In this document: one piece after another, positions 1,650 through 64,000 of the stretch | Layout of the letters: each line of letters opens with the position of its first letter | Numbering within the stretch: the first letter of the stretch is position 1 | Origin: Thermoplasmata archaeon | Lineage (GTDB): Archaea > Thermoplasmatota > E2 > DHVEG-1 | DNA: 64,000 nt | Assembly: GCA_020054495.1 (NCBI GenBank) | Contig: JAHWGK010000006.1 | Coordinates: 4,829-68,828 of the forward strand | Direction of reading: 5' to 3' | Notes under the pieces: model-generated | Databases searched by the model: none | What the model saw: only the letters and a program-made list of their open reading frames with translations | What the model was told of the DNA's origin: nothing | Program-made: the position numbers and the translations under genes

Positions 1650-1699
1650 AATATCTCAAATATAATGTATTATACTTATAGGCTTTTAAAACTTTCTAT

Positions 1700-3967: not shown

Positions 3968-4222
3968 TTACAAACTCTTATAGAAGACTTGGGTGGACTT
4001 CCTTTTTTTATATAGTATATGAGCGTATTTTTTATGGAGCCGTTCATGTTCTTTAAGAGCGAATTCATATCCTATTTTATCTCCTCTTTCTTTTGCCTCT
4101 TTCATTTTTTTAGCAATTTTATTTATTTCCTCTAGAGCTTCTTCAATTGAGGGTTCAAACTCATTATTCATTTTGCCTATCCCGCCCAATCCATCACAAT
4201 TTTCAGAACATTCATGTATCAT
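3968..4222 (-). CDS. small helical hypothetical protein, translationally coupled to the upstream surface-protein gene
   Basis: 84-aa ORF. Its ATG overlaps the TGA of ORF 4219..5202 (ATGA, plus-strand tcat at 4219-4222). Charged, helix-prone sequence (EEALEEINKIAKKMKEAKERGDK). The internal start MNNEF (4171) is also possible. Confidence 0.4.
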   Translation of the reverse strand: MIHECSENCDGLGGIGKMNNEFEPSIEEALEEINKIAKKMKEAKERGDKIGYEFALKEHERLHKKYAHILYKKRKSTQVFYKSL

Positions 4223-5202
4223 TCTTCGATTACATATTCCTCTTCATAAAGGAAAAAAACACCTGTTTTAAAGAGCAGAAATATGATAATTATAACAGTT
4301 AAAACTATCCCTAAAATCACGTATAGCCACGGAAAAGACTCATAACGTGCTACAATAATCCCATCGTAAGTATGATCCCAAGAGCCATCTCTTGTGGTAT
4401 CAAGATAGGTTATACCATTTTCAACTTTTACTTTCGTATGGGAATTTGTTTGTGAATTGTACAGAATGTCACTTTGTTCATCTCCATCTGTATCCACAAG
4501 ATAATAGGTTGTCGCACCAATATTTATTTTTATTACATCGTTAATATCTTTTGGATTTGATCCACAGGATTCTTCAAAAGTATCAGATAGCCCATCATTG
4601 TCATCATCGTAGTCACCTGAATAATTCCCATCAGATGATTCATCATCAGGTGTTCCATCACCATCAGTATCTAGTGGATATTCATTTGGATCTTCAGGAT
4701 TTTTTCCATATGATTCTTCAACTTCATTGTTCCAACCATCGCTATCCAAATCAAGTGAAATAACAATATTTACGATTAAAGGTGGAGACCAATTGCTTTC
4801 AACTGTGTAAGCGCTTCTATGTTTAATCCTAACCTCATAAACACCATAGGAAGCCCAACTATAAACTTGAGAAATAAAAGTATCAGACTCTACCACGTCT
4901 ATCCAATCACTATAGTTACCATCACCCCAATCAAACATCCAACAAGAACCTACCTCTGAAGTATATTCAAAATATACATGGTCTACGTTAATATTACCAG
5001 TAGTGTTGCCTGAGGGAGAGGCTGGAGTGTAATGGCTAGAACCAGCAATAACATAAATATCATTAGAACAGAAAAATATAACAAAAAAGGAAAAGAGCAG
5101 AATAAAAGAAACTAATGAAAAAAAAGATGCAGACTTTAATCTTTTGAATTTTGGATTCTTTTTTAAAGTAATTAAATGTTTTAACATCTTTTTGCATCCC
5201 AT
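4219..5202 (-). CDS. membrane-anchored surface protein: PKD-like domain, TSP3-like Ca-binding Asp repeats, C-terminal FPW-TM-acidic tail
   Basis: 327 aa. N-terminal hydrophobic signal or anchor (FFSLVSFILLFSFFVIFF). PKD-type FDWGDGNYSDW motif. DxDxDG runs (LDSDGW, DTDGDGTPDD, DDDNDGLSD). C-terminal FPWLYVILGIVLTVIIIIFLLF followed by YEEEYVIEE. Confidence 0.75.
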   Translation of the reverse strand: MGCKKMLKHLITLKKNPKFKRLKSASFFSLVSFILLFSFFVIFFCSNDIYVIAGSSHYTPASPSGNTTGNINVDHVYFEYTSEVGSCWMFDWGDGNYSDWIDVVESDTFISQVYSWASYGVYEVRIKHRSAYTVESNWSPPLIVNIVISLDLDSDGWNNEVEESYGKNPEDPNEYPLDTDGDGTPDDESSDGNYSGDYDDDNDGLSDTFEESCGSNPKDINDVIKINIGATTYYLVDTDGDEQSDILYNSQTNSHTKVKVENGITYLDTTRDGSWDHTYDGIIVARYESFPWLYVILGIVLTVIIIIFLLFKTGVFFLYEEEYVIEE

Positions 5203-5306: not shown

Positions 5307-8300
5307 TCAGTTTTCCTCAAACCATATTCTATAACCTGTTAAGTAAAGAACTAAAATAATTACAATAATTGCAATAACTATTCCAATTATCACAAGGCTC
5401 CACGGAAAATCGTCTGAGGACGCTTCTTCGCTATAAACTGTAATTTCACCACTTGCTGGATTGTATATATAATCCCATTTTGCATCCCCGTCCATATCAA
5501 TTAGATAATTGCCATCATCTGTTACATCCACAGTTGTTATTCTACCAACAGGATTGCAAAATTTATTAATTATACCATCCTTATCTGAATCTATCAAATA
5601 ATATTCTCTTCCTTCTATATCAACTACTATAACATCTGAATTATTATAAGGATCAGACCCCCATGTTTCTTCTAGATGATCAACAAGTCCATCATTATCA
5701 TCGTCTTCATCATACTCGTCTGGTAATCTATCTCCATCATTATCAATTGGACTGTCATTTGGATCTGACTTATTTGTATTAAACTCCACTTCTTCTAAAT
5801 CCGACCAGCCATCACCATCTGAGTCGAGTTCAATAGTTACTGCGGTTTTATTATTGTTTGACAGCCCAGCATTATCTATTACTTTAAGTGTTATATTGTA
5901 CAAACCTGGATTTACATATGTATAGGTTACTTGTTCACCGAAAAATATTGTTCCATCTCCAAGATTCCATGTATAATTGGTAATTGTTCCATCTGTATCA
6001 TAACTTCCTGATCCATCAAAGAATATATTTTCAAATGTTAATCCGAAGTATGGCCCCCCTGCATTTGCTACAGGTAAACCAGCAACAATTATGGTATTAA
6101 TAATAAAGAAGCATGTTTCATAATTACCAATATTTTCATTTGAACTTGCATCTCTTGCTTTCACATAAAATGTATGTGTACCATCTTCAATGGTACTAGT
6201 AGAGGTCCATGAAGTAACATTTCCAATCCAAATATCTGAACCATCATCTATTTTAACATAATAACCAGCGACACCACTTAAATCAGTTGCTGCGTCCCAG
6301 CTGAACGAGGGTGTATTATCAGTTTCTGGTGTTGTACATCCAACATTAGTTGGAGCAGTTGGAGCGGTTGTATCTCCTCCAGCCGGAGGAGGAGGATCAC
6401 CATTATCTGACTCTATATTTTTTACAGTTATATTAGTAGAATCTCCTGTATAACTATCTTTTGAAGTATATATCGGAAAGATAGTATCGGAGCTTACAGA
6501 TGGTGCAGTAAATGTTGTTTGTCCGTTTGAATTTGTTTGTTTAGTAACACTATTAAATGTCACATATGCACCTTGAACTAATGAGTTAAATTGAGTTTTA
6601 ACTGTTACAATAAAATTATTGCCTTCATCCACTGAAGAAACTGTATTAATTGATAATATGTAGTAATTCTCAAACTTATAAATTAACGGATATTTATCTT
6701 GATTACTACCGCCACTTATGTTATATTCTGAATCAACTATTCCATTGCTATTATTATCCCATGCTCCTTCTCCAGATTCGTCGAAATCATCCCAATAATT
6801 TCCGTTTAATAGAGTAATATTATACCAAGAATTATTTGAATCATCATATGCTTGTTGAGAATTATTGATAAAATTATTGTGATAAATAGTATTGTTAAAT
6901 CCATCTGATTCGTATACGCCCTTAGAGTTATTTTTTATAGTATTTTTATAAATATTGTTATAAGTTGAATCCTCAATAGATATACCTTGGAGATTATCTG
7001 TTATTGAGTTTCCAAATACTGTCGTATTTGCTGATGTACCAAAGATATATACCCCATCAGCAAAACTAAGATTATTCGATATAAGAGTATTATTAAAAAT
7101 ACTAGTTTTTTGTGAATCCTCAATCCATATGCAAGCTAAATCTGCATTCGTAATATTATTTTCAAAAATATTGGTATGAGTAGTCTCTAATATCCAAATT
7201 CCTATCCAAGAGTTATTTATTTTATTATAACTAATATTATTGTAACCGTAAGTTGTACCTCCTCCAGTATCAATTTCGATTCCATCGTCACAATCTTTGA
7301 TAAAGTTATGATGAATGTCTGAGTAATTTGACGAAACATAAATTGCTGCTAAAAGCATATCACTGTTTTGTAATGTAAATCTTGTTATTTCTACAGAGTC
7401 ATTATTGACTAGTAATATATAATCTTGATTTAATCCATCAATAATTGTGGAATTAATATCCTCTCCAATAAGCGATATTGATTTGTTAATATTAATATTA
7501 TATTCATTATATGTTCCATTAAAAACAAAAACTGTATCACTATTTGAAGAATTATTAATTCCATCCTTTATTGAATCAAAACAATATATTCCCCAACCTG
7601 GAGTGTTACTATTAAAGTCATCATTAACAAATATTTTTTGCACTGGACCTGGGTTAATTAGGGGATAATAATCAACATTACTTCCTCCTGATATGTTATA
7701 TTGTGAATCACCAATTCCCTCACCATTTAAATCTAATCCAGTGTAATTATCCCAATAATTTCCACCAATTGGATAACTCTTATTCCAATTGTTAGTTCCA
7801 GAATCATAACCATGTATGGTATTATTTATGAAATTATTATGATATATAGTATTATTTATTGAGTAGGAATTTTGATATACGCCATAAAAAGAATTATCTG
7901 AAATATTATTATTAAAAATGTTGTTGTATGATGAATCATAAAAGTATATTCCAATATAACTTCCTATGATATTGTTGTTAGATATATTATTATTAGATGA
8001 ATATGGTGAATCAATACCAGAAAACATATTGTTATTAATGGTGTTGTCAGTAACGTTCATGTCTGATGAATCCCATATACGTATGCCTCCATCATTGCAA
8101 TCACTAATATTATTTTCAAAAATGTTTGAAAAAGATGAATATCCAAAATCTACACCATAATAAGAGTGATTTGTGATAATATTATCTTTAACAGTATTAT
8201 TTTGAGAATAACCAATAATTATACCACCACCAAAATTATGGTATATAATATTGTCACTTATGTTGTTATTATTCAATTCTTCAAGCCAGAGGATGCCATA

Positions 8301-11300
8301 ATAGTTATTTACAACAATATTATCATAAATCTTATTATTATTTGAACTTACTTGTATGCCTGAATAATAATCAGTGGTAATGTTTTTGTTATGAGAGTCA
8401 CCCATTATTGACCAATTAACCGAGCTAAAAGCCATATCTCCAGCATTCATAATAGTAAATCCAGTTAAATTTACCCAATCAGAAGAAATGGTAACAACAG
8501 TTCCACTTTCATTTGAATCAATTATCGTTGAATTCTTATCCGCCCCCGTCAAATCAATTGTTTTGTCAATATTTATTTTTTCTTGGTAGGTTCCAGAATA
8601 GACAAAGATATCATCTCCTTCAAAAACCTCATCAATAGCATTTTGAATTGTTTGATAGGGATTGTTTTGTGTTCCAAGCCATGGACCTGCAATATTATCA
8701 TCATCAACATAAATAGTCCCATTTAATGAACCTGCCCAGGGATTTATTAGAGGATATCGGTCTTTACTATTATTTTGTCCTGAAATATTGTACGATGTAT
8801 CCCCTATTCCATCTACATTTAAATCCACACCTGAATAATTTTCCCACCAGTTACCACCACGTAAACGATATTCACTCAGATTGCCGTTATCCCAGGGATT
8901 ATTAGTGCCGTTATCAAAAGCATTAAGTGTATTATTGAAATTATTATGGTAAATAGAATTATTAGAACAATCTATGTTAACAATTATGCCAATATTATTG
9001 TTAAAAATTTCATTATCAGTTAATATGTTGTTATAAGATATATTGGTATAGCTGACTCCTAGAGAATGATTTGAAATATTAGTATCGGTTATTGTAATAT
9101 TTTCAGATGCATTTATACAAATACCTGTAACTGAGCTATTAAATATTGCACAATTTGTAATGGAAATATTCGACGAGGATTCCACATATAAACAAAAGGA
9201 TCCATTTCGTACTGTAAATTGTGTTATATTCACTGAGTTTCTATTTTGAATTTGTATCGTTCTTCCTGAAATCCCATTAGCATCAATAAATGTTGTATCT
9301 TTATTAATACCTGCTAAAGATATATTTTTATTGATACTCACATTTTCTGGATATATACCAGCTGGAACTAGTATATTATGGTCATCAAGTGTGTCAGTAT
9401 CATTTATTGATTCTTGAATTGTATCGAATAACTCATTCGTATCAATATTGAAAACGCCAACATTGACTGTTTGATTTCTTTCATTATCTGTATAGCTGTC
9501 TTCTGTAACGGCAGGACTGGATACATTCATACTAACATTATACGAACCTGCAGAAGGTGTCCAATTAAAACTTACCTGTTGAGAGGTTTGATTTGTAAAG
9601 GTTCCAATTGTAGTTGAGTTTTCTTCAGCGCCATTTATTCGAAAACTAACCAAGACATTCGTCTCATCGTTGTTGCCACTGTTATAAACAGTTGCATTTA
9701 CATGAATTGTTATATTGGATTTTACAGGATTTGTAGCATCTATATCTAAGGTTTGCACACCAACATTATGATCAAGTAACGTTGGAGGTTTAATTCGTTG
9801 TGCTGGATCTCCAAATAATAGACAACCTTGGATAATAGCCCGCCAGGTCCCATAAGAATAATCCCAGTTGATAGTTGGAGCCATCGTGTCCTTAGAAAAG
9901 GCCATGGCCTTTCCGAGTTGCCAATTGAAAGTACTTCCAGAGTTATTTGTTGTATCAAAAAAGTAGTCCCAGAAACATTTCTGTTGAAGTGAACTGCTTG
10001 AGTTTGTAGAATATAAGTTGCCCCATCCATAGCATGTGTTATAGACGCAGGCAAATGCTAGTTCAGTATCACTATGAAAAAGCATTGAGTGAAGCACACC
10101 ATCATCTGCAGCATCCATATCACCACTATGACACCCATAATCATGTAAAAAGAAAGGTTTTGTATTATGGTAGTCAGACTCCCAATTAGCATAATATACA
10201 TCTAAAGAATAATATTCATTCGCATGAGCAATGCCACTTAGAAGCGTAACATAATCATTGTTAATTGCATTTTTCAAACCAGCAATAGCTGCAGAATCTG
10301 AGCCACCTTGCCAACCAACATTAGGAGGTTCTGCAGTCCATTTAACAGAGAGGTTATATTCAACACCAGGATTTGTTGCATTCCAAGTTTCAAAACCATA
10401 TTGATAACCAAGCCAACTAGGATATGGACCATCACTATTAGGATCTGGGCCAAGCCAATTAGAGGTACCCTTAATCGCACTAAAATCAATGAAGTCATCC
10501 CCTTGACAAGACCATCCAGTATCACCACCATAAAAAGCTGCACTATCTAAATAGTCAGTAAATACAGAATCTGCATAATAGAAACTTTTATTCATCCAAT
10601 TTGAAACATCTTGCGGTGTATCACAAGTAATACGCCCGATATACATTTCAGCATATAAGTCAAAACCACTATCGCCTTCTTCTCCCCAATATGAATCGCC
10701 ATCCTCATTGAATGAATTGTCGAGATGATTCCAATAAATATCAGAATCAACATCAGATTCAAATACATATTTCATTTCTCTTGCTGGAATCCATTCGTCA
10801 TCCCCACCGATAAATATGTAACTGGCCCCCCAATCCTGATAAGCATCTTTACAAAATTCTCTTATATGTGCCGCTGTGTCATTGAATAGAGCAGTACCCT
10901 TCCAATAATCTGAACAATTATTGATATCTTGTATTGTAACTAGTGTACAATTTAAGCCGTCATCAGCCAAGTGCTTGTCCATTAAACTTGTCCAGTTATT
11001 TGGTGTAGTTGAGTTCGTTTCCCAATGATCAAGATTATTTTGTGTCGTCGTAATAATTACATAATCATAATCATCAATTGGACTGCATAGCCCACCAGAA
11101 TAATCTAAGATTGGAAAATTAGTAATTTCATATCTATCAATTATTTCTGGATTATTTACTAGGTTCGTCACCCATTCTTCATCTTCTTTGTTGTTTCGAT
11201 AAAACGAATTAAAAAATCCATTATCTTCAAGATCGATATTAACATTTAATTCAGGATAAAATGTTAATCTCCCTAAACCAGGAACATACTGTAAAGGATT

Positions 11301-11828
11301 AAGCCCCAAAGATAAAATGGTATAACCACGGCAATAACCTATATTATCTTCACCGAATAAATCAGACGGATAATTATCCATAGATCTATATCTCTCATAA
11401 TTAAACGCACATATGGTTGGTGGCGTACTACCTATAGGCAAAGGGTTTTGATATGGAACAATTGGTTTTTCAATGAGATCTATTTCAAGTGGAAAGATTT
11501 CTAAAGACAAACCATTCACTTCAATATTTTTCACAGATTTTGCAGGTGGCAACAAAATTTTGATAAATTTAACTGGCATTGCAGGCTCACCTACATCTTT
11601 ACCAAGCATTACACAACCTGGTAAGCTAATTGAAGTATATTGATTATCATAAACAATCATTTCATTAAAGCTTGGGGAATCAAACGAAAACGAGTAGCTT
11701 ATCCGCTCATAATCATCTACTTGCGTTTGAGCATAAGGTCTAACCTCATTGTCCTCAGAGATGACAGTGTTGAAACTAATAATTATACTAGCTATTGCCA
11801 TATAGGCAAAAATGGCTTTTAGTCCCAT
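5307..11828 (-). CDS. giant surface protein (2173 aa): C25/gingipain-like N-terminal region, three NosD/PbH1-type parallel beta-helix modules, Ig/Fn3/PKD-like domains, TSP3-like repeats, C-terminal TM anchor
   Basis: Signal peptide MGLKAIFAYMAIASIIISF. C25-propeptide-like GEPAMPV. Candidate His/Cys dyad (GIAHANEY, DYGCHSGD). Three modules each end in a GNYW..Y.G.D..GDGIGD..YNISGG...D.YPLI motif. PKD TWNLGDGT. DSDGDGWSD and DDDNDGLVD repeats. C-terminal DDFPWSLVIIGIVIAIIVIILVLYL..WFEEN. Confidence 0.85.
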   Translation of the reverse strand: MGLKAIFAYMAIASIIISFNTVISEDNEVRPYAQTQVDDYERISYSFSFDSPSFNEMIVYDNQYTSISLPGCVMLGKDVGEPAMPVKFIKILLPPAKSVKNIEVNGLSLEIFPLEIDLIEKPIVPYQNPLPIGSTPPTICAFNYERYRSMDNYPSDLFGEDNIGYCRGYTILSLGLNPLQYVPGLGRLTFYPELNVNIDLEDNGFFNSFYRNNKEDEEWVTNLVNNPEIIDRYEITNFPILDYSGGLCSPIDDYDYVIITTTQNNLDHWETNSTTPNNWTSLMDKHLADDGLNCTLVTIQDINNCSDYWKGTALFNDTAAHIREFCKDAYQDWGASYIFIGGDDEWIPAREMKYVFESDVDSDIYWNHLDNSFNEDGDSYWGEEGDSGFDLYAEMYIGRITCDTPQDVSNWMNKSFYYADSVFTDYLDSAAFYGGDTGWSCQGDDFIDFSAIKGTSNWLGPDPNSDGPYPSWLGYQYGFETWNATNPGVEYNLSVKWTAEPPNVGWQGGSDSAAIAGLKNAINNDYVTLLSGIAHANEYYSLDVYYANWESDYHNTKPFFLHDYGCHSGDMDAADDGVLHSMLFHSDTELAFACVYNTCYGWGNLYSTNSSSSLQQKCFWDYFFDTTNNSGSTFNWQLGKAMAFSKDTMAPTINWDYSYGTWRAIIQGCLLFGDPAQRIKPPTLLDHNVGVQTLDIDATNPVKSNITIHVNATVYNSGNNDETNVLVSFRINGAEENSTTIGTFTNQTSQQVSFNWTPSAGSYNVSMNVSSPAVTEDSYTDNERNQTVNVGVFNIDTNELFDTIQESINDTDTLDDHNILVPAGIYPENVSINKNISLAGINKDTTFIDANGISGRTIQIQNRNSVNITQFTVRNGSFCLYVESSSNISITNCAIFNSSVTGICINASENITITDTNISNHSLGVSYTNISYNNILTDNEIFNNNIGIIVNIDCSNNSIYHNNFNNTLNAFDNGTNNPWDNGNLSEYRLRGGNWWENYSGVDLNVDGIGDTSYNISGQNNSKDRYPLINPWAGSLNGTIYVDDDNIAGPWLGTQNNPYQTIQNAIDEVFEGDDIFVYSGTYQEKINIDKTIDLTGADKNSTIIDSNESGTVVTISSDWVNLTGFTIMNAGDMAFSSVNWSIMGDSHNKNITTDYYSGIQVSSNNNKIYDNIVVNNYYGILWLEELNNNNISDNIIYHNFGGGIIIGYSQNNTVKDNIITNHSYYGVDFGYSSFSNIFENNISDCNDGGIRIWDSSDMNVTDNTINNNMFSGIDSPYSSNNNISNNNIIGSYIGIYFYDSSYNNIFNNNISDNSFYGVYQNSYSINNTIYHNNFINNTIHGYDSGTNNWNKSYPIGGNYWDNYTGLDLNGEGIGDSQYNISGGSNVDYYPLINPGPVQKIFVNDDFNSNTPGWGIYCFDSIKDGINNSSNSDTVFVFNGTYNEYNININKSISLIGEDINSTIIDGLNQDYILLVNNDSVEITRFTLQNSDMLLAAIYVSSNYSDIHHNFIKDCDDGIEIDTGGGTTYGYNNISYNKINNSWIGIWILETTHTNIFENNITNADLACIWIEDSQKTSIFNNTLISNNLSFADGVYIFGTSANTTVFGNSITDNLQGISIEDSTYNNIYKNTIKNNSKGVYESDGFNNTIYHNNFINNSQQAYDDSNNSWYNITLLNGNYWDDFDESGEGAWDNNSNGIVDSEYNISGGSNQDKYPLIYKFENYYILSINTVSSVDEGNNFIVTVKTQFNSLVQGAYVTFNSVTKQTNSNGQTTFTAPSVSSDTIFPIYTSKDSYTGDSTNITVKNIESDNGDPPPPAGGDTTAPTAPTNVGCTTPETDNTPSFSWDAATDLSGVAGYYVKIDDGSDIWIGNVTSWTSTSTIEDGTHTFYVKARDASSNENIGNYETCFFIINTIIVAGLPVANAGGPYFGLTFENIFFDGSGSYDTDGTITNYTWNLGDGTIFFGEQVTYTYVNPGLYNITLKVIDNAGLSNNNKTAVTIELDSDGDGWSDLEEVEFNTNKSDPNDSPIDNDGDRLPDEYDEDDDNDGLVDHLEETWGSDPYNNSDVIVVDIEGREYYLIDSDKDGIINKFCNPVGRITTVDVTDDGNYLIDMDGDAKWDYIYNPASGEITVYSEEASSDDFPWSLVIIGIVIAIIVIILVLYLTGYRIWFEEN

Positions 11829-44227: not shown

Positions 44228-47200
44228 TTATTGTAGTCCTAATCGTAGTAGTAGACGTTGTAGAATTGGAAATAGATCAGGATAATTCTGTTGGAACCAT
44301 TGCAATAGCATTGTGGTTACCTTGTTTCTTGGCATAGTAACAGTAAGTGTTCCCTCGGTACCAATAAAACCATTGATGTCTTTTGCTTTAGCAGTAATTA
44401 TATAATCACCCCGTTCAGCCCATGTATGACTTGCAAATGCATCTTCTCCAGATGCAAAAGGACCTGCGATGATTTCTTCCCCAGTACCGTCACCCCAGTC
44501 TACAATATACTCTGCGATGTCATCATCATCAGGATCTATTGATTTAAAACTGTATTCATACTCTGTTCCAGCATCTCCATTATCTTCACCATCTATTATA
44601 GGTGCATTTGGCGGTTCATTACCAGGTTCAGGTTCTGTTGTGAACGTATAAACTTCTTCTGTTGTTTCGCCACTACCATCTGGATCTGTAGCACTCACAT
44701 ACCAAGTATATATGGTACTATAATCTAGACCAGAAATACTACATGTTTTTGTACCCTCACTTTCACCTGTACCACTATTGCTACCAACATCAGGACTGGT
44801 TGTAATACTCCAATCAAAGCTATTTTCCTCAGGGTCTGCTATATAAACAGATAACGAAGATGTAGTTATGGGTACACCAGTAGCACCGTCAAGTGGATCT
44901 TCATTTGAAAACACAGGTGGAAAATTCGGTGGCGCACTTTCTTTAGTGAAGAAATCCCACACAAGGCCAATAGTACTTTCACCGTATGGATCCCATGCGA
45001 CAATCTGCCACCAATAATGCGTGTTATACTCTAGCGGATTTGGTGGAGTATAACTGGTTTCTGATTGATTGTGTGATACTAAAACATCAGGGGTTTGATC
45101 ATTTGCTTCAAGATATACACAATACGTTACAGGATCACCATTTGGATCACTACAAGTCCAACTCAGGGTAGGAGTAACACCAACATTTGTTGCGCCATCG
45201 GGTGGATAGGGATTACTAGGGGGATAAGGTGGTAGGTTGTCCTCTGGGACTGTAGCTTCTCCCATATATGGGCAGAAATTATGTTTGGTGACAGTTACAT
45301 ACATGACACCCCCAGAAGACGGCACGGGATAAAACGTTACATCTCCAGCTGAATTTGTATAGCCTGTTAAATATACTTCATCCTCTTTTGATAAACAGAC
45401 ATATGCGCCATTGACATTGGTTCCTCCTGTAGTTTCAACATGAACTGTGAAAGATGAAGAGCTAACAGTATCAGGATGAGTTACATCAAGATTCTGTGGA
45501 GCTGCTGTCCATATCTCCATACTTGGATCCCCAAAAACATGGAACAACTCAAAGGTATACCTTTCATACCCCCAGGGATCACCCCATGTGTTTCCCATGT
45601 ATGTTTTACCGTTATTCAATATTTCTCCTAAGGTATAAAGCGGAATATCACCACCAATATCCTGATCAAAATCAGGCCAGATAGCATCATAAAAACCACG
45701 ACATAAAAAGTCGTTATACCCACTATAGCTTACTCGAGTTGCACCAAAAACAGCAACGGCACCTCCACCATCTTTTCTTATAAATTTTTCACAGAAACAC
45801 TCATAATTATCAAACTTACCAGTCAGACAATTAATGCTGAACACAACAGGAGTAAGATCACCATTTGTTAACCCCGCTATATGAGAAGATTGGAAATAAG
45901 GATCACCCCAGCCACCTTCAGACCCATGATCCCGATGATTCAAGATAAACACTCCTGACTCTATTGCGTTGATAATATCATCAGCATCACCATCCCAAGC
46001 AAACGTTGGACGAAGAAGCTCAGGCGGTAAAGGCTCTCCATTACCATAATAACCATTATTATAATGAGTAGGATAAACACTTGGTTCTGTAACATAAATA
46101 CGTTCTCCATCATAACCCTCTGATAACAGATAATCCCTGACTTCCTCAGAGGTTCTCACAAACCTCCTAGTTTCATATCCATTATGCTCATCATCCTGGA
46201 AATATGCTGCTACCGCAAAATCTTCATAATAACTAGTAGCAGTAGGAGGAGCCTGCTCATATTTTAGTATTTTTTCAACAATTACTTCAGCTTCTTGAGA
46301 CGTATCAGCAGGTATTCTTCCAATAAAAAGATCAGGGTAATAATCAGATCCACTAACAGTAGCATACCACAAATCTGATGCAGCAGAATAAACATAATTA
46401 GTTGGCACATATTCAGCATCACCAACAAGTAGAACATACGATGGTTTCAGATCCCATGTATCATATGCATTTTGAATATATTGACGTATCTGTGAAGAAG
46501 TACTTCCTGCTTCAATAGTGTCAACAACTTTAGTAAATAATCCTTTAGAGTGCTTCCAATCTGCCAGCTCAAGAATCTCCATATAAAAATCAGGATGAGT
46601 AATAATTAAATAATCACATCCCTCCTCCCGTGATCCACTACCTGAACCTTGTGAGGATTCATCAAATATGGTATTTTCCAAAAACTCTTGCCAATTCTCA
46701 AATACGTTTTCATAAAACCGGGTAAACAATACATTATCAAAACCTGATTCCACAGCCACTTTTTCACCCTCATCCCAAGATAGCTCTATAACGATTTCAT
46801 CATAAATAGTTGCAATTTCTTGTTTTGGATTACATTGAACCGGGTAAAACTCAATTTTCACAAAACAAATATCACGAATCTTACCATCATACACCAATTC
46901 AACTAGCTTTCCAGGATACTCGATATCCTGCTGGTAAAACGATTCATCAATTATAAACTCAGTATTATCACCCGTTTCACTATCAGACTGAGGACTCTGA
47001 GCAGGATACACCCGGCCAACCCAACTAGACTCCATAACTTCAGCATCAACAACATTCAAAGATACATCCAATGTAGGAACAGCAAAAATACAAGTCACAA
47101 CAGGCAACTGTGGTTTACCCAAGTCACCGATAAAACCGGCATTAGGGATATTAAACGTGGTAAAGGTACCATGCTCGGTCACATCTTGATCTTGTATTAG

Positions 47201-47389
47201 CTCCTGCAATTTAAAAGAAATAAGTAGCTCATGATCACTTACATAATTATAAGAAACCATCGTGTCATTTTCTAATCTAGTTTCATTCAACCCTACCGTA
47301 TTTATTGAACTTGGCAACAAAAATAATACGACAATACCCAGCGTCACAACCATTTTTAAAACTATTTTCCTATCTCTATATATTTTCAT
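44228..47389 (-). CDS. secreted C25 (gingipain-like) cysteine peptidase with Fn3-like and PKD domains and a conserved C-terminal FPILQRLLLRLGL tail
   Basis: 1053 aa with a signal peptide, propeptide-like GKPQLPV, catalytic-type HRDHGSEGGW (His) and SINCLTGKF (Cys), two Fn3-like units, PKD YIVDWGDGTG, and the tail ..TMPRNK-x16-FPILQRLLLRLGLQ*. Confidence 0.88.
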   Translation of the reverse strand: MKIYRDRKIVLKMVVTLGIVVLFLLPSSINTVGLNETRLENDTMVSYNYVSDHELLISFKLQELIQDQDVTEHGTFTTFNIPNAGFIGDLGKPQLPVVTCIFAVPTLDVSLNVVDAEVMESSWVGRVYPAQSPQSDSETGDNTEFIIDESFYQQDIEYPGKLVELVYDGKIRDICFVKIEFYPVQCNPKQEIATIYDEIVIELSWDEGEKVAVESGFDNVLFTRFYENVFENWQEFLENTIFDESSQGSGSGSREEGCDYLIITHPDFYMEILELADWKHSKGLFTKVVDTIEAGSTSSQIRQYIQNAYDTWDLKPSYVLLVGDAEYVPTNYVYSAASDLWYATVSGSDYYPDLFIGRIPADTSQEAEVIVEKILKYEQAPPTATSYYEDFAVAAYFQDDEHNGYETRRFVRTSEEVRDYLLSEGYDGERIYVTEPSVYPTHYNNGYYGNGEPLPPELLRPTFAWDGDADDIINAIESGVFILNHRDHGSEGGWGDPYFQSSHIAGLTNGDLTPVVFSINCLTGKFDNYECFCEKFIRKDGGGAVAVFGATRVSYSGYNDFLCRGFYDAIWPDFDQDIGGDIPLYTLGEILNNGKTYMGNTWGDPWGYERYTFELFHVFGDPSMEIWTAAPQNLDVTHPDTVSSSSFTVHVETTGGTNVNGAYVCLSKEDEVYLTGYTNSAGDVTFYPVPSSGGVMYVTVTKHNFCPYMGEATVPEDNLPPYPPSNPYPPDGATNVGVTPTLSWTCSDPNGDPVTYCVYLEANDQTPDVLVSHNQSETSYTPPNPLEYNTHYWWQIVAWDPYGESTIGLVWDFFTKESAPPNFPPVFSNEDPLDGATGVPITTSSLSVYIADPEENSFDWSITTSPDVGSNSGTGESEGTKTCSISGLDYSTIYTWYVSATDPDGSGETTEEVYTFTTEPEPGNEPPNAPIIDGEDNGDAGTEYEYSFKSIDPDDDDIAEYIVDWGDGTGEEIIAGPFASGEDAFASHTWAERGDYIITAKAKDINGFIGTEGTLTVTMPRNKVTTMLLQWFQQNYPDLFPILQRLLLRLGLQ

Positions 47390-48590: not shown

Positions 48591-49736
48591 TTATAGTCCT
48601 AAACGCAGTAGCAGTCGTTGTAGTATCGGGAATAGATTGAGATAGTTCTCAAGGAAGTCTAAGAATGGTGTATTGATAGCTTTGTTTCTTGGTGTTGTCA
48701 TTGATACATCTATTGTACAGAAATCTCCAGGATTATCTTTATTTTCGATTGTTATTATTCCGGCGTAATCGTTTTTTTCTTCCGGTGCAATAACAGTTAC
48801 TTGTACTGTGACTGGAGAGCCTGGTTCTAAATCATCTCCTTGCTCTGGATTAAATGTCCATGTTCCCCAACTTGGTTCGTCTGTGATTTGCCAGCCAAGC
48901 AATCCGCCACCTGCGTTCTTAACAGTAAAACTACCTTCTAATGTTGCACCTGCAGTTACATTGCCAAAATGAAGATCGCCTTCACATAACAAGTCAGGAT
49001 CTAATTCAAAATCAACACCAGTAACAGTGAAATCATCTAAAAAGAACGCAAAATGATCCCATGAAACAACGTGGATCCCAATATATATATCTTGTCCAAT
49101 ATAATCAGTAAGACTATAAGTATACTCAGTCCAATCTGTTGGAACTTCAATAATTCCACCAGAAACAATTGTAAAACTCGATGGATCTGTGTCCGTAGTT
49201 GAAATACCATACTCTATTTCTTCTAAACCATATGCATCATTAAGTGATCTTGCCCAGAACGAAAGCATTCCATCTTCTATCATCGTTAATTGAGGGCTAA
49301 ACAGCCAATCATCATTTGGTGGTGTTATTGAATCCCAACATGATGCATATTTTTCTCCAGTATGCGGAGGATGACTAGTAAATGGTGGAGTCGTTAAAGA
49401 TGGATTAAATATCATAAACGCACCTGCATATCCTGCATTAGGCCAATCAACTCCTTCAACACCCCAGGTATCTGAGCCATCACCATCTAAGGTAGTCCAT
49501 GGTGGAAAGTTATCAACAACAAAGTCTGGATAGTTTTCAAAACTATCTGAAAAAACTCCTTTGGTTATTAACGGGGTATTACTTGATTCCTGAATTTTTA
49601 ATTCAACATTTTCATAAGATTTCATCGTTTTTTTTACAGCATTAGTATTTGCTGTCGCAGATACCGCTGTAAGAATCAGTATCGTAGTAATCAGCAAAAC
49701 AACAGCTTCTTTTCCTATTTTTCTCGTATTTTTCAT
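48591..49736 (-). CDS. secreted cleaved-adhesin / choice-of-anchor-J-like domain protein with the same C-terminal FPILQRLLLRLGL tail
   Basis: 381 aa with signal peptide MKNTRKIGKEAVVLLITTILILTAVSATA. FENYP..WTTLDGDGSDTWG..PPNDDWLFSP..FWARS resembles the gingipain/hemagglutinin cleaved-adhesin domain. Ig-like domain, then tail ..TPRNK-x16-FPILQRLLLRLGL*. Confidence 0.75.
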   Translation of the reverse strand: MKNTRKIGKEAVVLLITTILILTAVSATANTNAVKKTMKSYENVELKIQESSNTPLITKGVFSDSFENYPDFVVDNFPPWTTLDGDGSDTWGVEGVDWPNAGYAGAFMIFNPSLTTPPFTSHPPHTGEKYASCWDSITPPNDDWLFSPQLTMIEDGMLSFWARSLNDAYGLEEIEYGISTTDTDPSSFTIVSGGIIEVPTDWTEYTYSLTDYIGQDIYIGIHVVSWDHFAFFLDDFTVTGVDFELDPDLLCEGDLHFGNVTAGATLEGSFTVKNAGGGLLGWQITDEPSWGTWTFNPEQGDDLEPGSPVTVQVTVIAPEEKNDYAGIITIENKDNPGDFCTIDVSMTTPRNKAINTPFLDFLENYLNLFPILQRLLLRLGL

Positions 49737-50931: not shown

Positions 50932-51702
50932 ATGAACTATGAAACGGAAGTGGTGGATGGAAGAGTTGCGACAGAAAATGGGCCATGCAAGACAGGAATA
51001 GAAGAACTTGATAAAGGGTTGGGCGGCGGTATCTCACTAGGCAGCGCTGTTCTCATGCCTGGAAGCAGCGGCTCGGGTAAAACCACATTATGCATGCAAT
51101 TTTTAATTAATGGTGCTAAGCAAGGTAAGAGAGGAATATTTTTCACGGCAACTGAACCCTTATTTAAATTAACAAAAAACATGGAGGGGTTCAGTTTTTA
51201 TGATAAAAAGTTAATTGAATCAGGAATGATTAACCTTATAGATTTAAGAATAATAAGCGAGCGACTAGGGTTGGACATGGAGAAATATACGGCAGAAGAT
51301 GCTAGTGCTCTACTGGATGTGTTGAGGGATATAGTTGATGAATTGGATGTAAAACGATTAGTGATAGATTCGGTAACCGCATTATGTTATAGATTACAAA
51401 CCAAGGAGATGATTAGGGATTTCGTTTTTAAATTAGGATCATCCCTTGCAGCTATGAACTGTACATCTATTTTCACGTCAGAGGTACCACCACAGGTTTT
51501 TCAATATTCTCAATATGGGGTAGAAGAGTTCATCGCAGATGGTATAATAATGCTAGGAGACATCGAGAGGAAGGGAGATCTGATACGAACGTTTCAAATT
51601 ATAAAAATGCGAGGCATAGCACATCACAGAACAAAATTTGCAATGAATATCTCATCTAAGAACGGCATAGAATTAGCTCCATTACTAAAATCCCAAGAGT
51701 AG
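50932..51702 (+). CDS. single-domain KaiC/RadA-like (RecA-superfamily) ATPase
   Basis: 256 aa with TGIEELDKGLGGG, Walker A GSSGSGKTT, Walker B VIDSV and the C-terminal IIKMRGIAHH motif. Confidence 0.8.
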   Translation: MNYETEVVDGRVATENGPCKTGIEELDKGLGGGISLGSAVLMPGSSGSGKTTLCMQFLINGAKQGKRGIFFTATEPLFKLTKNMEGFSFYDKKLIESGMINLIDLRIISERLGLDMEKYTAEDASALLDVLRDIVDELDVKRLVIDSVTALCYRLQTKEMIRDFVFKLGSSLAAMNCTSIFTSEVPPQVFQYSQYGVEEFIADGIIMLGDIERKGDLIRTFQIIKMRGIAHHRTKFAMNISSKNGIELAPLLKSQE

Positions 51703-59891: not shown

Positions 59892-60818
59892 ATGAAACAC
59901 AGGAAGTTTATCAAAGAAAATTCCGCAGTCGCAGGAGTTATTGAAGCAATCTTACTCATTGCTCTTGTTGCAATAATCCTCTCTATGATACAATTAACTT
60001 ATGTACCTATAATGATGGAACAAAAAGAAGCTGACCACATGGATGAGGTATCAAATCAATTTTCGCAATTAAAATCTGTAATAGAAATTCAATCAATGAT
60101 GGGTGCTATGGGGACAGGTGAACCCATTACATATACTCCTATGTCATCTCCAATAACTCTAGGTAGTAAAGAACTTCCATATTTTGTATCAGCAAGATCA
60201 TCAGGTCAAATAGATTTAATTGGTCAAGATGATGCTGGGGATCACAAGATAAATATTCAACCTGCGCCAGCTGATTTCCCATCTGGAATACCTTTAACTT
60301 CGATTAAATATAGAGCAACTAACTTTTATTTCCCTAAATCTTCAGCAGAACCCTGGCAAGAATATATTCTTGAAGGTGGAGGTATAATTCTTAAACAATC
60401 AGATGGAGAGGTAATGCGGGTTTATCAAGGTATTGCTGTTGAAAATAATAGCGACCTGGGCAATATCAAAATAAAATATTACATTCCTTTATTTACGGGT
60501 GTTCCCGGGAAAAAATTGTATGCTGATTATAAAGATTGTTATGTTCATACAAACTACACTAATCATTATACACATTCAGGGCCTACCGCCTTTATTCATA
60601 TTTATACAGAATATCCAGATGCTTGGTATCAATCACTTATTAAAGATGATACAGGGTTACTATGGGAATGCTACGATAATGGATATATAAATGTTAATTT
60701 AGATGACACTGTAACTCCAAATAAGGTGGAAATAACACCCGGTAGTTTAACAATTACTTTAGAACTTACGATAGTAGAAATTGGGGTTCAAGTTGGTCCA
60801 GGTTATGTGATACCTTAA
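59892..60818 (+). CDS. archaeal type IV pilin-like protein (class III signal peptide, Pilin_N/DUF1628-like N-terminus)
   Basis: 308 aa. MKHRKFIKENSAVAGVIEAILLIALVAIILSMI matches the archaeal prepilin pattern (charged leader, AV-x-x-VI-E/G, hydrophobic helix). Large beta-rich body. Confidence 0.65.
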   Translation: MKHRKFIKENSAVAGVIEAILLIALVAIILSMIQLTYVPIMMEQKEADHMDEVSNQFSQLKSVIEIQSMMGAMGTGEPITYTPMSSPITLGSKELPYFVSARSSGQIDLIGQDDAGDHKINIQPAPADFPSGIPLTSIKYRATNFYFPKSSAEPWQEYILEGGGIILKQSDGEVMRVYQGIAVENNSDLGNIKIKYYIPLFTGVPGKKLYADYKDCYVHTNYTNHYTHSGPTAFIHIYTEYPDAWYQSLIKDDTGLLWECYDNGYINVNLDDTVTPNKVEITPGSLTITLELTIVEIGVQVGPGYVIP

Positions 60819-60953: not shown

Positions 60954-61769
60954 ATGTCTCATATAATGACAATACAAGAGAGCGATTTAGCAATGGATGA
61001 AGTCGAAGATAATAGCAAAGATAAGAAAGAAAATGTACTAAAAACAGAAGTTAGTGGATTTGATGAGTTATTTACAGATGGGGGCATTCCAAAGGGCAGC
61101 TCTGTTTTAGTAGCTGGGGGACCAGGAACAGGTAAAAGCATACTTTGTAGACATATATGTTATAATCTTGTTTCAATAGGAAAAAAGTGTATGTATGTCA
61201 GCTTTGAGGAAAGCAAAGAACGTATTGTAAGAAGTATGGAAGATTTTGGGTGGGATGTAACAAAATTTATTGAGAATGGGGATTTTATAATACAGAAAAT
61301 TAATCCGCTTGATATACTTAGAATGAAGTTTGGATCAATAGGAGGATCTGGGTCAGCTACCGAGTTATCTTACAAGATAAAGCCACTTGTTATACCTAAA
61401 AATTTTCATCCAGATATTATAGCTGTTGATTCTTTGACTGCAATTATTGCTGTTTCGGTTACAAAAGATAGAAACTACAGAGTTTATCTACAGCAATTGT
61501 TTAGCTTCTTTGAAGAGACCGGTTCTACTTCATTTTTAATTACTGAAACAGATCCAATTCCGACTAGATATAGTGAAACTGGAATTGAAGAATTTTTAGC
61601 AGATGGAATAATCGTCCTTTATAATATTCAAAAGAATGATGTTAGGCAGAACGCTATTGAAGTTTTAAAAATGAGATATGGAAAACATCAGAAGAAAATG
61701 GTTTTAATGACAATTACAGATAAAGGCATTATAGTTCATCCAGATGAATGTGTTGCAATTGAATCCTGA
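60954..61769 (+). CDS. single-domain KaiC/RadA-like ATPase with acidic N-terminal extension
   Basis: 271 aa with SGFDELFTDGGIPKG, Walker A GGPGTGKS, Walker B AVDSL and VLKMRYGKH. Confidence 0.8.
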   Translation: MSHIMTIQESDLAMDEVEDNSKDKKENVLKTEVSGFDELFTDGGIPKGSSVLVAGGPGTGKSILCRHICYNLVSIGKKCMYVSFEESKERIVRSMEDFGWDVTKFIENGDFIIQKINPLDILRMKFGSIGGSGSATELSYKIKPLVIPKNFHPDIIAVDSLTAIIAVSVTKDRNYRVYLQQLFSFFEETGSTSFLITETDPIPTRYSETGIEEFLADGIIVLYNIQKNDVRQNAIEVLKMRYGKHQKKMVLMTITDKGIIVHPDECVAIES

Positions 61770-62027: not shown

Positions 62028-62234
62028 TTATATCCAATAATAATTTTATTTTGCAAAGTATATAAACATTTCTATACAACTCTAGCCCACAATAAAATTG
62101 CGCAACCAAAACCTAACTTTTCTCAAAAATTAATAAATAAATTTTTTTGATGAAAGGATAAAATAATATACGAGCATTTGCATATCACATTAATGACTGG
62201 GATCACTAATATTAATGATTATAGAGAGGTAAAA

Positions 62235-62957
62235 ATGGACAGAGTGTCGACAGGAGTTGAAGGGCTTGACTCAACAATTGAAGGCGGTTTACCAAAAAAA
62301 TCGATTACCCTTATTTCAGGCCCTCCTGGTGGCGGTAAAAGTATTTTTTGTTTTCAGTTTATATATGACGGGGCAAAAAATGGTGAAAAATGTCTATTTC
62401 TATCTTTAGATAAAAAAGCAGAAGGGCTTCTCATCCAAGCAAAACATCTAGGATTTGATTTTCAACCAGCGATTGAACAAAATCTTGTTAAATTTCTCTA
62501 TTTGAACATCTCCAAAAAATTTGTTTATGAGACTATGACAAATGAAATCTTATCAGGCGATTATGATAGAATTGTATTAGATTCAATTACCCCACTTTCC
62601 GAAATGCCAATATTTATGAGAACTTCTATGGATAATAAAGTCGATACCAGTATGGTTGATTTTGAGGAATTCCCAGAAGATGTTTCTCTACCGACAAGAA
62701 GACTGCATCTACGTTATATATTAAGTGCATTAGAATCAACAAAATCAACTTCTATTGTTACATCGGAACTTCCAGTTGGCACATCTCTTCTTTCAAGAGA
62801 TGGTATTTCAGAATTTTTGGCAGATGGCGTTATAACCCTTTCTCTTGACCCCACAATGGATAGGCGAAAGCTTTCAGTTATGAAAATGAGAAACACAAAA
62901 CATACGCTTAAACCACATGATATTGTTATAGACTATGGTGGTATCAAAATCGTTTAA
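62235..62957 (+). CDS. single-domain KaiC/RadA-like ATPase
   Basis: ORF track 62178..62957. ATG 62235 (MDRVSTGVEGLD) is preceded by GAGAGG. Walker A GPPGGGKS, Walker B VLDSI and VMKMRNTKH. Confidence 0.8.
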   Translation: MDRVSTGVEGLDSTIEGGLPKKSITLISGPPGGGKSIFCFQFIYDGAKNGEKCLFLSLDKKAEGLLIQAKHLGFDFQPAIEQNLVKFLYLNISKKFVYETMTNEILSGDYDRIVLDSITPLSEMPIFMRTSMDNKVDTSMVDFEEFPEDVSLPTRRLHLRYILSALESTKSTSIVTSELPVGTSLLSRDGISEFLADGVITLSLDPTMDRRKLSVMKMRNTKHTLKPHDIVIDYGGIKIV

Positions 62958-62968
62958 AAACTTCAAAT

Positions 62969-63439
62969 ATGTTTTTAGATTATAAGCCTCCTAAAGAACT
63001 TAGAGCACTATTTATTGTTCACTATGCGCCACTAATTTTAATTATATTAATAGGGCCATTGACAGCATTATTTGATGTCTGGAAACTACCTATAAATATG
63101 ATTTTTAGTATCATCCTAGGATCTGTTATTTTTCTACTTGGTGCTTTTGTATATTTTAAATGGGAATTATTCTGGTATAAAGCATATAAAGGCCAACTTG
63201 TAACTGGAGGGATTTTTCAACATATTAGACATCCACATTATACTTCGCTTCTTATCGTTGGATTTGGGCTTTCATTATTTTTTTGGTCGTTAGCAGCGTT
63301 ACTCATTGCAATTATTGCAATACCAATAATGATATGGAGTATATTTGATGAAGAAAAACTCCTGATAAAACAATATGGTAAAGAATACGTTGAATATATG
63401 AAAAAGGTACCTTGGCGAATAATTCCAAAGATTTTTTAA
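62969..63439 (+). CDS. isoprenylcysteine carboxyl methyltransferase / phospholipid methyltransferase family membrane protein
   Basis: 156 aa, 4-5 TM, with GIFQHIRHPHYTS and the distal EEKLL..YG..Y..Y motif. Confidence 0.65.
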   Translation: MFLDYKPPKELRALFIVHYAPLILIILIGPLTALFDVWKLPINMIFSIILGSVIFLLGAFVYFKWELFWYKAYKGQLVTGGIFQHIRHPHYTSLLIVGFGLSLFFWSLAALLIAIIAIPIMIWSIFDEEKLLIKQYGKEYVEYMKKVPWRIIPKIF

Positions 63440-63568: not shown

Positions 63569-64000
63569 CTAGATGCTCAATAGTATATTTAGTATTTGAT
63601 CAAGTACTGGAAATCGTTCCATGAATGCCTCGAGAAGTGCAATGACTAAGTTGAATTGTTTGGCTTTTGGCATACTAATGTATAGTATTCCCCATGGACC
63701 TTCTGCATCATTCACATCTTTTGCCTTCACTTTTACTGTATAGACACCATTTGAAGACCAAGTATGACTTGCAGATGATCCCTCGCCTGAACTATATGGA
63801 CCATCCCAATCTTCAAATGTGTCATCTCCCCAGTCTACATAGTAGTATATATCGTCTCCATTAGGATCAGTTGCAGAAAATGTAATGGTATATTGTGTTC
63901 CTGGTTTTCCACTGGTTGGCCCGTCAACCTCTGGTGCATATGGTTGCTGGTTGTTTGATTCTTCTATCGTCGAGTCAACTGGAACTGGTGCAGACCATTC
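63569..64000 (-). CDS. 3' part of a secreted PKD-domain protein carrying a variant of the conserved C-terminal tail (N-terminus beyond the window)
   Basis: Not in the ORF track because it is truncated. The reverse frame is open from 64000 to TAG 63569-63571: ..PYAPEVDGPTSGKPGTQYTITFSATDPNGDDIYYYVDWGDDTFEDWDGPYSSGEGSSASHTWSSNGVYTVKVKAKDVNDAEGPWGILYISMPKAKQFNLVIALLEAFMERFPVLDQILNILLSI*. Confidence 0.75.
   Translation of the reverse strand, partial: EWSAPVPVDSTIEESNNQQPYAPEVDGPTSGKPGTQYTITFSATDPNGDDIYYYVDWGDDTFEDWDGPYSSGEGSSASHTWSSNGVYTVKVKAKDVNDAEGPWGILYISMPKAKQFNLVIALLEAFMERFPVLDQILNILLSI

Follow-up and report, generated by a model that had tools for sequence, protein, structure and literature searches.

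The analyzed stretch, hereafter the window, comprises 64,000 nucleotides of contig JAHWGK010000006.1 of a Thermoplasmata archaeon (assembly GCA_020054495.1, positions 4,829 to 68,828 of the forward strand). Three genes of the window encode proteins that end in a short peptide of one layout, which we call the tail. Two of them, T1 and T2, lie at 44-49 kb, and the third, T3, is the truncated end of a minus-strand gene at the right-hand edge of the window (63569-64000). T3 is the third and weaker instance of the tail, and the main evidence comes from the pair at 44-49 kb and from a wider protein family. A preliminary description of the window had noticed T3 as a truncated minus-strand open reading frame (ORF) absent from the ORF track and had quoted the end of its translation (GILYISMPKAKQFNLVIALLEAFMERFPVLDQILNILLSI). 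Minus-strand translation of 63569-64000 reproduces the quoted peptide exactly: the open frame is 143 residues long, runs off the end of the window, and closes with DPNGDDIYYYVDWGDDTFEDWDGPYSSGEGSSASHTWSSNGVYTVKVKAKDVNDAEGPWGILYISMPKAKQFNLVIALLEAFMERFPVLDQILNILLSI before the stop codon. Its absence from the ORF track is explained by the listing program, which skips any ORF that extends past the end of its source.

Read in the direction of translation, the T3 gene end starts with a linker (EWSAPVPVDSTIEESN; 63953-64000, minus strand), beyond which the gene continues past the window end. The linker is followed by a PKD domain (63674-63952, minus strand), identified with Pfam, PDB entry 4xed, and AlphaFold2 (AF2). 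The domain occupies residues 17-99 of the frame (PF18911, E = 1.7e-7; PF00801, E = 3.8e-7), with scores that exceed the Pfam gathering thresholds (31.6 bits versus 27 and 30.5 bits versus 23.5), and it belongs to a tail-adjacent subtype (...DPNGDDIYYYVDWGDD...SASHTW...VKVKAKD...GPWGILYIS). The PKD region ends at residue 109-110, where ILYIS gives way to MPKAK, and the peptide that follows, down to the final SI, forms the extreme C terminus of the protein (SMPKAKQFNLVIALLEAFMERFPVLDQILNILLSI). The 34-residue tail itself (MPKAKQFNLVIALLEAFMERFPVLDQILNILLSI) spans 63572-63673 on the minus strand and is followed by the TAG stop codon of the gene, read from the sequence at 63569-63571 (minus strand). 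T-rich runs (T7 and T10) are located within about 40 nt 3′ of the stop on the coding strand; oligo-T tracts are a known archaeal termination signal.

The T3 tail has a basic hinge (M-P-K-A-K), a first helix (QFNLVIALLEAFMER), a kink at F-P, and a second helix (PVLDQILNILLS). In the AF2 model of T3, the PKD domain (predicted local distance difference test [pLDDT] score, >95) is followed by a basic linker of 4-5 residues and by helices at residues 115-129 and 131-142, which are broken at F130-P131. The layout given in the preliminary description, in which a PKD strand is followed by M-P-K-A-K, a 15-residue helical spacer, and F-P, is borne out by Pfam for the PKD domain and by AF2 for the spacer, whose 15 residues are helix 115-129. 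In the corresponding model of the last 130 residues of T1, helices 101-112 and 116-126 are separated by the loop YPD. The T3 PKD domain closely resembles that of 4xed, the PKD domain of an M14-like peptidase (E = 1.9e-30, 96 residues aligned). The crystallized chain of 4xed ends in LEVTMPK, at the first residues of the tail hinge, and differs from T3 in being a construct without the tail; because that construct stops at TMPK, the tail lies outside the PKD fold. On the basis of these models, the tail would consist of a basic P-[KR]-x-[KR] hinge, placed straight after the final beta-strand of an Ig-like domain, and two amphipathic helices kinked at an invariant FP, the second of them Leu-rich and closing the protein. 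Its hydrophobic moment is high (0.53-0.63) and its mean hydrophobicity is low. The best 19-residue Kyte-Doolittle mean of the tails is 0.3-1.24 (1.24 in T3), compared with 3.05-3.58 for real C-terminal anchors of the same window, and hydropathy thus rules out the tail as a transmembrane (TM) anchor.

The T1 gene (44228-47389, minus strand) encodes a C25 peptidase of 1053 aa with a propeptide, a catalytic domain, Ig domains, and a PKD domain (Pfam/NCBIfam, AF2), and its product ends in a tail of the canonical type, MPRNKVTTMLLQWFQQNYPDLFPILQRLLLRLGLQ. The T2 gene (48591-49736, minus strand), 13.8 kb from T3, encodes a secreted protein of 381 aa with choice-of-anchor J and D domains (NCBIfam) and the canonical tail TPRNKAINTPFLDFLENYLNLFPILQRLLLRLGL, which scores 55-67 bits with tail profiles. 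By their Pfam and NCBIfam domains, the cargo portions of T1 and T2 are unrelated. Their last 14 residues are identical (LFPILQRLLLRLGL; 44231-44275 and 48594-48635), and the corresponding codons differ by seven synonymous and no non-synonymous changes. This pattern points to purifying selection on the terminal peptide. Recent gene conversion between T1 and T2 is ruled out by the seven synonymous differences within the 14 identical codons. Both tails are present as the preliminary description had placed them, with the layout that it had likened to a third copy about 14 kb away. When the six-frame segments of 60 aa or more were searched over their last 55 residues with a regular expression for the tail pattern, the ORFs of T1, T2, and T3 were the only matches.

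The relationship of T3 to the other two tails is supported by several scores. A hidden Markov model (HMM) of canonical tails, built from tails found elsewhere with T3 and its orthologs left out, scores T3 at 15.5-17.5 bits, compared with a maximum of 14.3 bits among 20,000 composition shuffles, and among the window's 207 six-frame segments only T1 and T2 score higher than T3. Shuffling that preserves the hydrophobic/polar pattern of T3 does not reach its score in any of 20,000 trials. An independent metagenomic HMM, made from 92 unique tails of 80 metagenomic loci that were retrieved with canonical-only patterns to avoid circularity, gives T3 29.0 bits (null maxima, 13.7 and 15.5 bits), and the T3 tail alone, with the PKD strand removed, scores 17.3 bits (null maxima, 14.9 and 13.5 bits). 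An alignment of canonical tails matches one of T3-type tails with a probability of 95% (hhalign, P = 3e-8). The distance from the hinge proline to F-P is 20 residues in T3 (P111 to F130-P131) and 21 residues in canonical tails. Intermediate forms between the two types also exist, in protein P0024 (ending in FLEQFPILQKILNLIL; also RFLEQFPILQKILNLIL) and in the product of 1587-3077 of metagenomic locus L002 (ending in LFELFPILERLLNLLR; also RLFELFPILERLLNLLR). Judged by these comparisons, the T3 tail is a diverged but genuine homolog of the T1 and T2 tails. Although the region is short and the identity of T3 with T1 and T2 is as low as about 24-30%, a coincidental likeness of the kind found among short amphipathic helices, which the preliminary description had raised against itself, is very hard to credit given that neither shuffle set reaches the T3 score with three different HMMs, that the hhalign match and the third rank in the window point the same way, and that the tail sits at the same position, adjoining the final strand of the PKD domain and reaching to the stop codon, with a hinge-to-FP spacing that differs by one residue.

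The closest relatives of the T3 protein (P0001-P0004, P0015, P0174, and P0175) are about 62-65% identical to it overall, and all seven orthologs end in a T3-like tail (for example, VPRTKSFNLITKILQAIFEHFPLLEQILVKLLTL). Within the T3-type group, PKD domains are 69-73% identical to that of T3 and tails are 41-48% identical. The seven orthologous tails, 37-39 residues long in the tail-region alignment, have invariant K, F-P, and two Leu residues, and none is truncated or frameshifted. The canonical helix caps, N-T-P at the start of helix 1 and H-P-x-L at the turn, are replaced in T3 by F-N-L-V and F-M-E-R; among the capping residues T3 retains N7 only, and this loss is shared with P0001-4 and P0015. 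The faster divergence of the tail, the lost caps, and the untruncated orthologs together argue that T3 is a faster-evolving, diverged subtype that its orthologs have kept. Decay of a canonical tail into a non-functional remnant on one PKD-protein lineage would also produce tails that diverge faster than their PKD domains, that have lost the T-P and H-P capping motifs, and that score 12-29 bits where T1 and T2 score 38-67 bits. We nevertheless regard such decay as improbable because the seven orthologs retain a full-length tail with its invariant residues, AF2 still gives a helix-kink-helix for T3, and short tails of a like kind turn up on further proteins (L002 1587-3077 and L067). What survives divergence in T3 is the hinge with its basic residues, the length of each helix, the kink at F-P, and the spacing of the Leu residues, and these features therefore indicate what a minimal signal may be.

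The preliminary description had considered T3 to be part of a PKD protein unlinked to the others, and this holds as far as the available orthologs allow it to be tested. The full T3 gene was not recovered: an exact look-up of the neighboring gene gave only a contig of 814 bp, and a scan of genome collections gave relatives at 43-51% identity. The longest ortholog fragment, P0175 (358 aa), has no similarity to T1 outside the PKD domain and tail by BLAST, and its residues 1-225 have no Pfam or NCBIfam match. In a profile comparison with C25 catalytic domains, its N-terminal part shows one weak match of 23 residues at the catalytic-His motif (probability, 6%; P = 0.006). In P0001-P0004 and P0175, the segment equivalent to the T3 linker comes after an N-terminal domain that ends in YGDPxLIxYSPEW.

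The tail belongs to a large family of C-terminal tails of about 30-35 residues. When 1.84 billion cluster representatives were searched exhaustively with the HMM, 1,119 proteins matched at E ≤ 0.001, and 155 matched at the stricter cutoff of E ≤ 1e-10; this search was used in place of a word-index search with the tail profile, which gave just 13 short fragments. About 147 of the best 150 matches end within about 10 residues of the C terminus, and nearly all of them within 5. A scan of metagenome loci, made with an alignment (A6) narrower than the broader alignment and profile (A2), provided 103 tail ORFs in the 80 loci (G+C content, 29-39%), and in 90 of them no more than 2 residues lie between the end of the match and the stop codon. 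Further degenerate tails fall below the E ≤ 1e-3 cutoff of the canonical HMM (L008 4806-6677, L064 9136-10833, L087 3374-5602, L067 3-995, and L024 1391-2419; for example, endings SIPKNKSIDNINPWIFRLIQRFQIFKYLF and LLRILERFPLLQKLLLFLK) and form a continuum of divergence like that of T3. Because the canonical HMM misses them, the family must be larger than 1,119 clusters. Two proteins have an internal tail match in addition to a tail-like C terminus (P0149, 994 aa, residues 278-312; P0171, 586 aa, residues 292-323), and these internal matches could stem from the fusion of gene calls, from read-through, or from tandem modules that are genuine.

The consensus of the canonical tail, about 31 residues long, is P[KR]N[KR]AINTPFLxFLxxHPxLFP[LI]L[RQ]xLLxL. 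Several positions are nearly fixed (N7 in 88% of canonical tails, P9 in 91%, H17 in 91%, P18 in 95%, F21 in 100%, and P22 in 97%), and the hinge is conserved at P (98%), [KR] (99%), N (79%), and [KR] (98%), of which T3 keeps P-K-x-K. The preliminary description had stated that only the pattern of the tail is conserved. That statement describes T3 in relation to T1 and T2 well, but it does not extend to the family, across which the canonical tail, as its alignment reads, is a sharply conserved sequence and not a mere pattern.

Among 110 longer family members, the cargo includes PKD domains (67 proteins), NosD/beta-helix domains (11 proteins), FG-GAP and PQQ propellers, and peptidases of families C14, S8, C25, C1, and C13; C10 peptidases also carry the tail in loci of Thermoplasmatales metagenome-assembled genomes (MAGs). 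A signal-peptide-like N terminus is present in 73 of the 110 by a simple heuristic, and the remainder are mostly N-terminally truncated fragments. The members share the tail alone in 850 of 5,995 pairs, and with the last 131 residues left out of the comparison, about 90% of pairs lack similarity. The preliminary description had inferred cargo proteins scattered around the genome and tied together by the tail, and such a family does exist: besides its 1,119 representatives, there are three copies in the 64-kb window and seven, from canonical to T3-like, in the 20-kb locus L002 of one MAG. That locus (L002 1-20366, Thermoplasmatales archaeon CSMAG_1140) is a secretome island, in which seven tail genes on the same strand, for NosD/beta-helix proteins, a C10 peptidase, and PKD proteins, are interspersed with genes whose products are a C25 peptidase, a protein with a Fic domain, and an ABC ATPase.

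A PKD domain followed by the tail is the commonest arrangement of the family (67/110). The T3 PKD domain, of the tail-adjacent subtype, is 46% identical to that of T1 (E = 1e-21), whereas its match to the TM-anchored C25 protein of the window (5307-11828, minus strand) is marginal (best E = 0.13), and PKD domain and tail therefore often travel together. The preliminary description had asked whether the two form a mobile module. However, the tail also follows non-PKD domains in T2 and its relatives and in one case comes directly after a C25 catalytic domain (L021 6309-8198), and it is therefore the tail, and not the PKD domain with the tail, that is the module.

All named sources of the family are uncultured Thermoplasmata or Thermoplasmatales MAGs or sediment metagenomes. 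In scans of whole proteins and isolated tails, no model of Pfam (2025 copy) or NCBIfam release 20.0 covers the tail, and no NCBIfam -CTERM model matches it. A string search of about 8 million full texts gave no occurrence of its motif strings, and the tail is not described in the papers examined on Thermoprofundales and on extracellular peptidases or in Haft's sorting-signal papers. The family is apparently undescribed and limited to uncultured Thermoplasmata.

The tail occupies the architectural position in which other surface proteins of these archaea have a different ending. Three other surface proteins of the window end in genuine TM anchors at this position. T2, for its part, has domains of the choice-of-anchor type, which also speaks for an anchor slot. 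Homologs of the C25 peptidases carry the tail, carry a TM anchor (5307-11828 in the window), or end bare (in GDPSLKIGGYS), and these endings are thus equivalent in their slot. Protein P0008 has a hybrid ending, in which SMPK and a segment like tail helix 1 (ILSQLFQFVEENP) lead into a genuine TM helix, which stands where helix 2 would be, and then into a basic end; it is unique among about 250 endings examined. Two adjacent surface-protein genes of the window (4219-5202 and 5307-11828, both minus strand; the product of the latter has 2173 aa and C25, NosD, and PKD domains) share a C-terminal module of [DS]FPW, a TM helix, and an acidic end (FEEN or EEEYVIEE), which may be a second, TM-type anchoring signal of the same organism. 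Elsewhere, secreted proteins that include a C25 peptidase (L002 3317-4255, L002 4415-6823, and L004 9122-10606) have a recurrent beta-rich end (G[LF]GK.I.(I/V)...(I/V)(K/Q)), which adds a third type of C terminus to those of the surface proteins of Thermoplasmata.

We propose that the tail is most likely a C-terminal cell-surface sorting or retention signal. Its homology, family size, terminal position, modularity, signal peptides, non-TM amphipathic nature, and predicted helix-kink-helix are established here; that it functions in retention or sorting, that a partner exists, and that the basic hinge may be cleaved are what we infer in addition. The protein would be exported by the Sec pathway via its N-terminal signal peptide, after which the helix-kink-helix would be bound by a common partner, either a receptor or a processing enzyme at the membrane surface, or would be docked on the membrane interface. 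Peptidases and adhesin-like proteins could thereby be kept on the cell and would not diffuse away, and T3 would represent a faster-evolving subtype of the signal. The fixed polar and proline residues and the lack of non-synonymous differences between T1 and T2 suggest specific recognition, and not mere amphipathicity. The preliminary description had seen in the tail the behavior expected of a recognized signal, and that behavior is evident in the terminal position, the diverse cargo, and the pairs of proteins that share the tail alone; its status as a signal is still what we infer from them.

Clustering of the 346 non-tail ORFs from the 80 loci gave no universal companion of the tail, and among them no multi-pass membrane protein or protease recurs with it. 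Two further contexts on long contigs contain just lipid-synthesis and surface-protein genes. The only recurrent neighbors are tail-less C25 peptidases (14/80 loci) and a secreted protein of 135 aa (6/80 loci, in about four independent contexts: L021 10258-10665, L022 1204-1611, L009 1614-2021, L010 6785-7192, L035 183-590, and L015 7586-7993). The 135-aa protein has a signal peptide and then an Ile/Leu-rich helical region of about 60 residues; its gene is directly downstream of a tail gene in L021 and L022, and no homolog of it was found in the window. It is a possible partner or receptor of the tail.

The same neighbor bears on the conjecture that the tail is a protein-protein assembly module, a dockerin-like or Leu-zipper-like oligomerization helix that gathers secreted enzymes into a surface complex or scaffold. 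A strongly conserved Leu-rich helix 2 (LLRQLLGL or ILQRLLLRLGL), the attachment of the same tail to many different hydrolases, and the presence of a helical secreted protein next to tail genes would all suit such a module. Yet that protein accompanies only a small minority of the loci and lacks a counterpart in the window, no cohesin-like scaffold was seen, and no dockerin similarity was found in Pfam or NCBIfam, and we consider assembly unlikely.

We compared the tail, as a putative sorting or retention signal, with known systems. For small C-terminal sorting domains, Haft listed eight attributes (bioRxiv 10.1101/2023.06.07.544157, section 5), and the tail shows six of the eight (1, 2, 3, 6, 7, and 8): a location at the terminus, several copies in a genome, a motif conserved at its start, signal peptides on most members (the N terminus of T3 is outside the window), unrelated cargo, and homologs with other endings. 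The remaining two, a TM helix and a basic cluster at the very end, are structural, and tails end in LLGL, RLGLQ, or ILLSI instead; the tail is therefore not filed in the tripartite class, despite its genomic likeness to it. The tripartite signals (LPXTG/sortase, PEP-CTERM/exosortase, PGF-CTERM/archaeosortase A, GlyGly-CTERM/rhombosortase, and the MYXO-/CGP-CTERM/myxosortase type) resemble the tail in being carried by mutually unrelated cargo with N-terminal signal peptides and in having homologs without the signal or with another anchor. They differ in that their conserved motif has 3-5 residues, whereas the tail conserves about 30, and in their cognate multi-pass protease, none of which was identified for the tail among the neighbors in the 80 loci.

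The C-terminal domain (CTD) used by type IX secretion systems (T9SS), whose sortase PorU is of the C25 family, offers a looser parallel. Like the tail, it is a C-terminal tag on many secreted proteins, notably C25 (gingipain-family) peptidases with Ig or PKD domains. It is, however, a beta-sandwich of about 80 residues in diderm Bacteroidota, and the tail is helical, has about 31 residues, and occurs in archaea; no T9SS components were seen alongside the tail. T1 matches the PorU model (1.2e-30) with 106 bits, far below the cutoff of 420, and the match reflects general C25 homology only. A speculative extension of the sorting reading, to which we give little weight, is that the tail serves as a tag for an archaeal sorting system that is undescribed and non-tripartite. 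A dedicated surface or membrane enzyme would recognize the helix-kink-helix, cleave the P-[KR]-N-[KR] hinge, and join the cargo to the envelope. Candidates for such an enzyme are the C25 (PorU-family) peptidases, which are Arg/Lys-specific, abundant, and found together with tail genes. If so, the system would be an archaeal functional analogue of T9SS CTD/PorU, and it would decide whether extracellular peptidases of abundant sediment Thermoplasmata (MBG-D-like) stay cell-bound or are released.

The C-terminal amphipathic helix of Escherichia coli PBP5 and PBP6 holds the enzyme on the membrane. These enzymes resemble the tail proteins in being exported by Sec and in having a short C-terminal amphipathic helix instead of a TM segment, and the tail is likewise interchangeable in position with TM anchors. 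The tail differs in having two helices, a kink that is fixed at F-P, and polar residues with high conservation, in occurring on more than 1,000 otherwise unrelated proteins, and in showing no sequence relationship to the PBP anchors. By analogy, the closest functional counterparts of the tail may be anchors of the PBP5 type and, more loosely, T9SS CTD/PorU. The strongest competitor of a recognized signal is that the tail is a self-sufficient interfacial anchor, with its helices in the cytoplasmic membrane's outer leaflet and its hinge on lipid head groups, and that no enzyme, receptor, or cleavage is involved. A high moment at low mean hydrophobicity in a non-TM segment is what an interfacial helix would have; the tail takes the slot of the C-terminal TM anchors of paralogous surface proteins, and in the P0008 hybrid a genuine TM helix replaces helix 2. 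The search for a partner gene found none, and T3 retains mainly the pattern, which would be sufficient for lipid binding. However, lipid-binding helices need neither near-invariant N, H, P, and FP nor a non-synonymous divergence (dN) of 0 over 14 codons with 7 synonymous changes, and such conservation points to a particular partner protein or to a fold of defined shape. We hold purely interfacial anchoring to be possible but less likely.

Several observations weigh against a sorting or retention signal. The putative surface role of the tail is deduced from genomic evidence, and neither the 80 loci nor the window contain a conserved neighboring enzyme or receptor. The tail has no TM helix and no terminal Arg/Lys cluster, features of all established sortase, exosortase, archaeosortase, and rhombosortase types, and its basic residues come first. 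The pLDDT scores of the tail helices are only moderate (about 78-89; about 78 in T3). Conservation is higher in the tail than in the neighboring region (62% versus 42%), a difference that is inflated because members were chosen by their tail score. In the T3 subtype, the faster divergence of the tail than of the PKD domain fits relaxed constraint equally well.

Thermoprofundales/MBG-D-like sediment Thermoplasmata are among the most abundant benthic archaea and are thought to use detrital protein via highly transcribed extracellular peptidases of families C25, C10, C11, and C13 (PMC6461988). The Thermoprofundales genomics paper lists similar extracellular C25, C10, C11, and C13 peptidases and PKD proteins, with no mention of the tail. 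Who benefits from the hydrolysis depends on whether such enzymes stay on the cell or are lost by diffusion. The tail, common to more than 1,000 protein clusters that include those peptidases, acts genomically like a sorting signal without the TM design of every known one. It offers a profile for annotation of the archaeal surface proteome, a peptide for lipid- or protein-binding assays, and a marker for phylogenetic profiling.

Other genes of the window encode TBP, archaeosine tRNA-guanine transglycosylase, an archaeal CCA-adding enzyme, and KaiC paralogs, which mark it as archaeal, and its G+C content is 31-37%; tRNA and Rfam scans of the window gave no matches. A gene for a membrane methyltransferase of the PEMT/ICMT family (62969-63439, plus strand) is convergent with the T3 gene end, 130 nt away, and there is no evidence of a connection between the two genes. 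A protein of 308 aa (59892-60818, plus strand), which has no Pfam match, starts with a class-III (type IV pilin-like) N terminus (MKHRKFIKENSAVAGVIEAILLIALVAIIL), and its gene sits among those of three KaiC-family ATPase paralogs (50932-51702, 60954-61769, and 62178-62957, plus strand).

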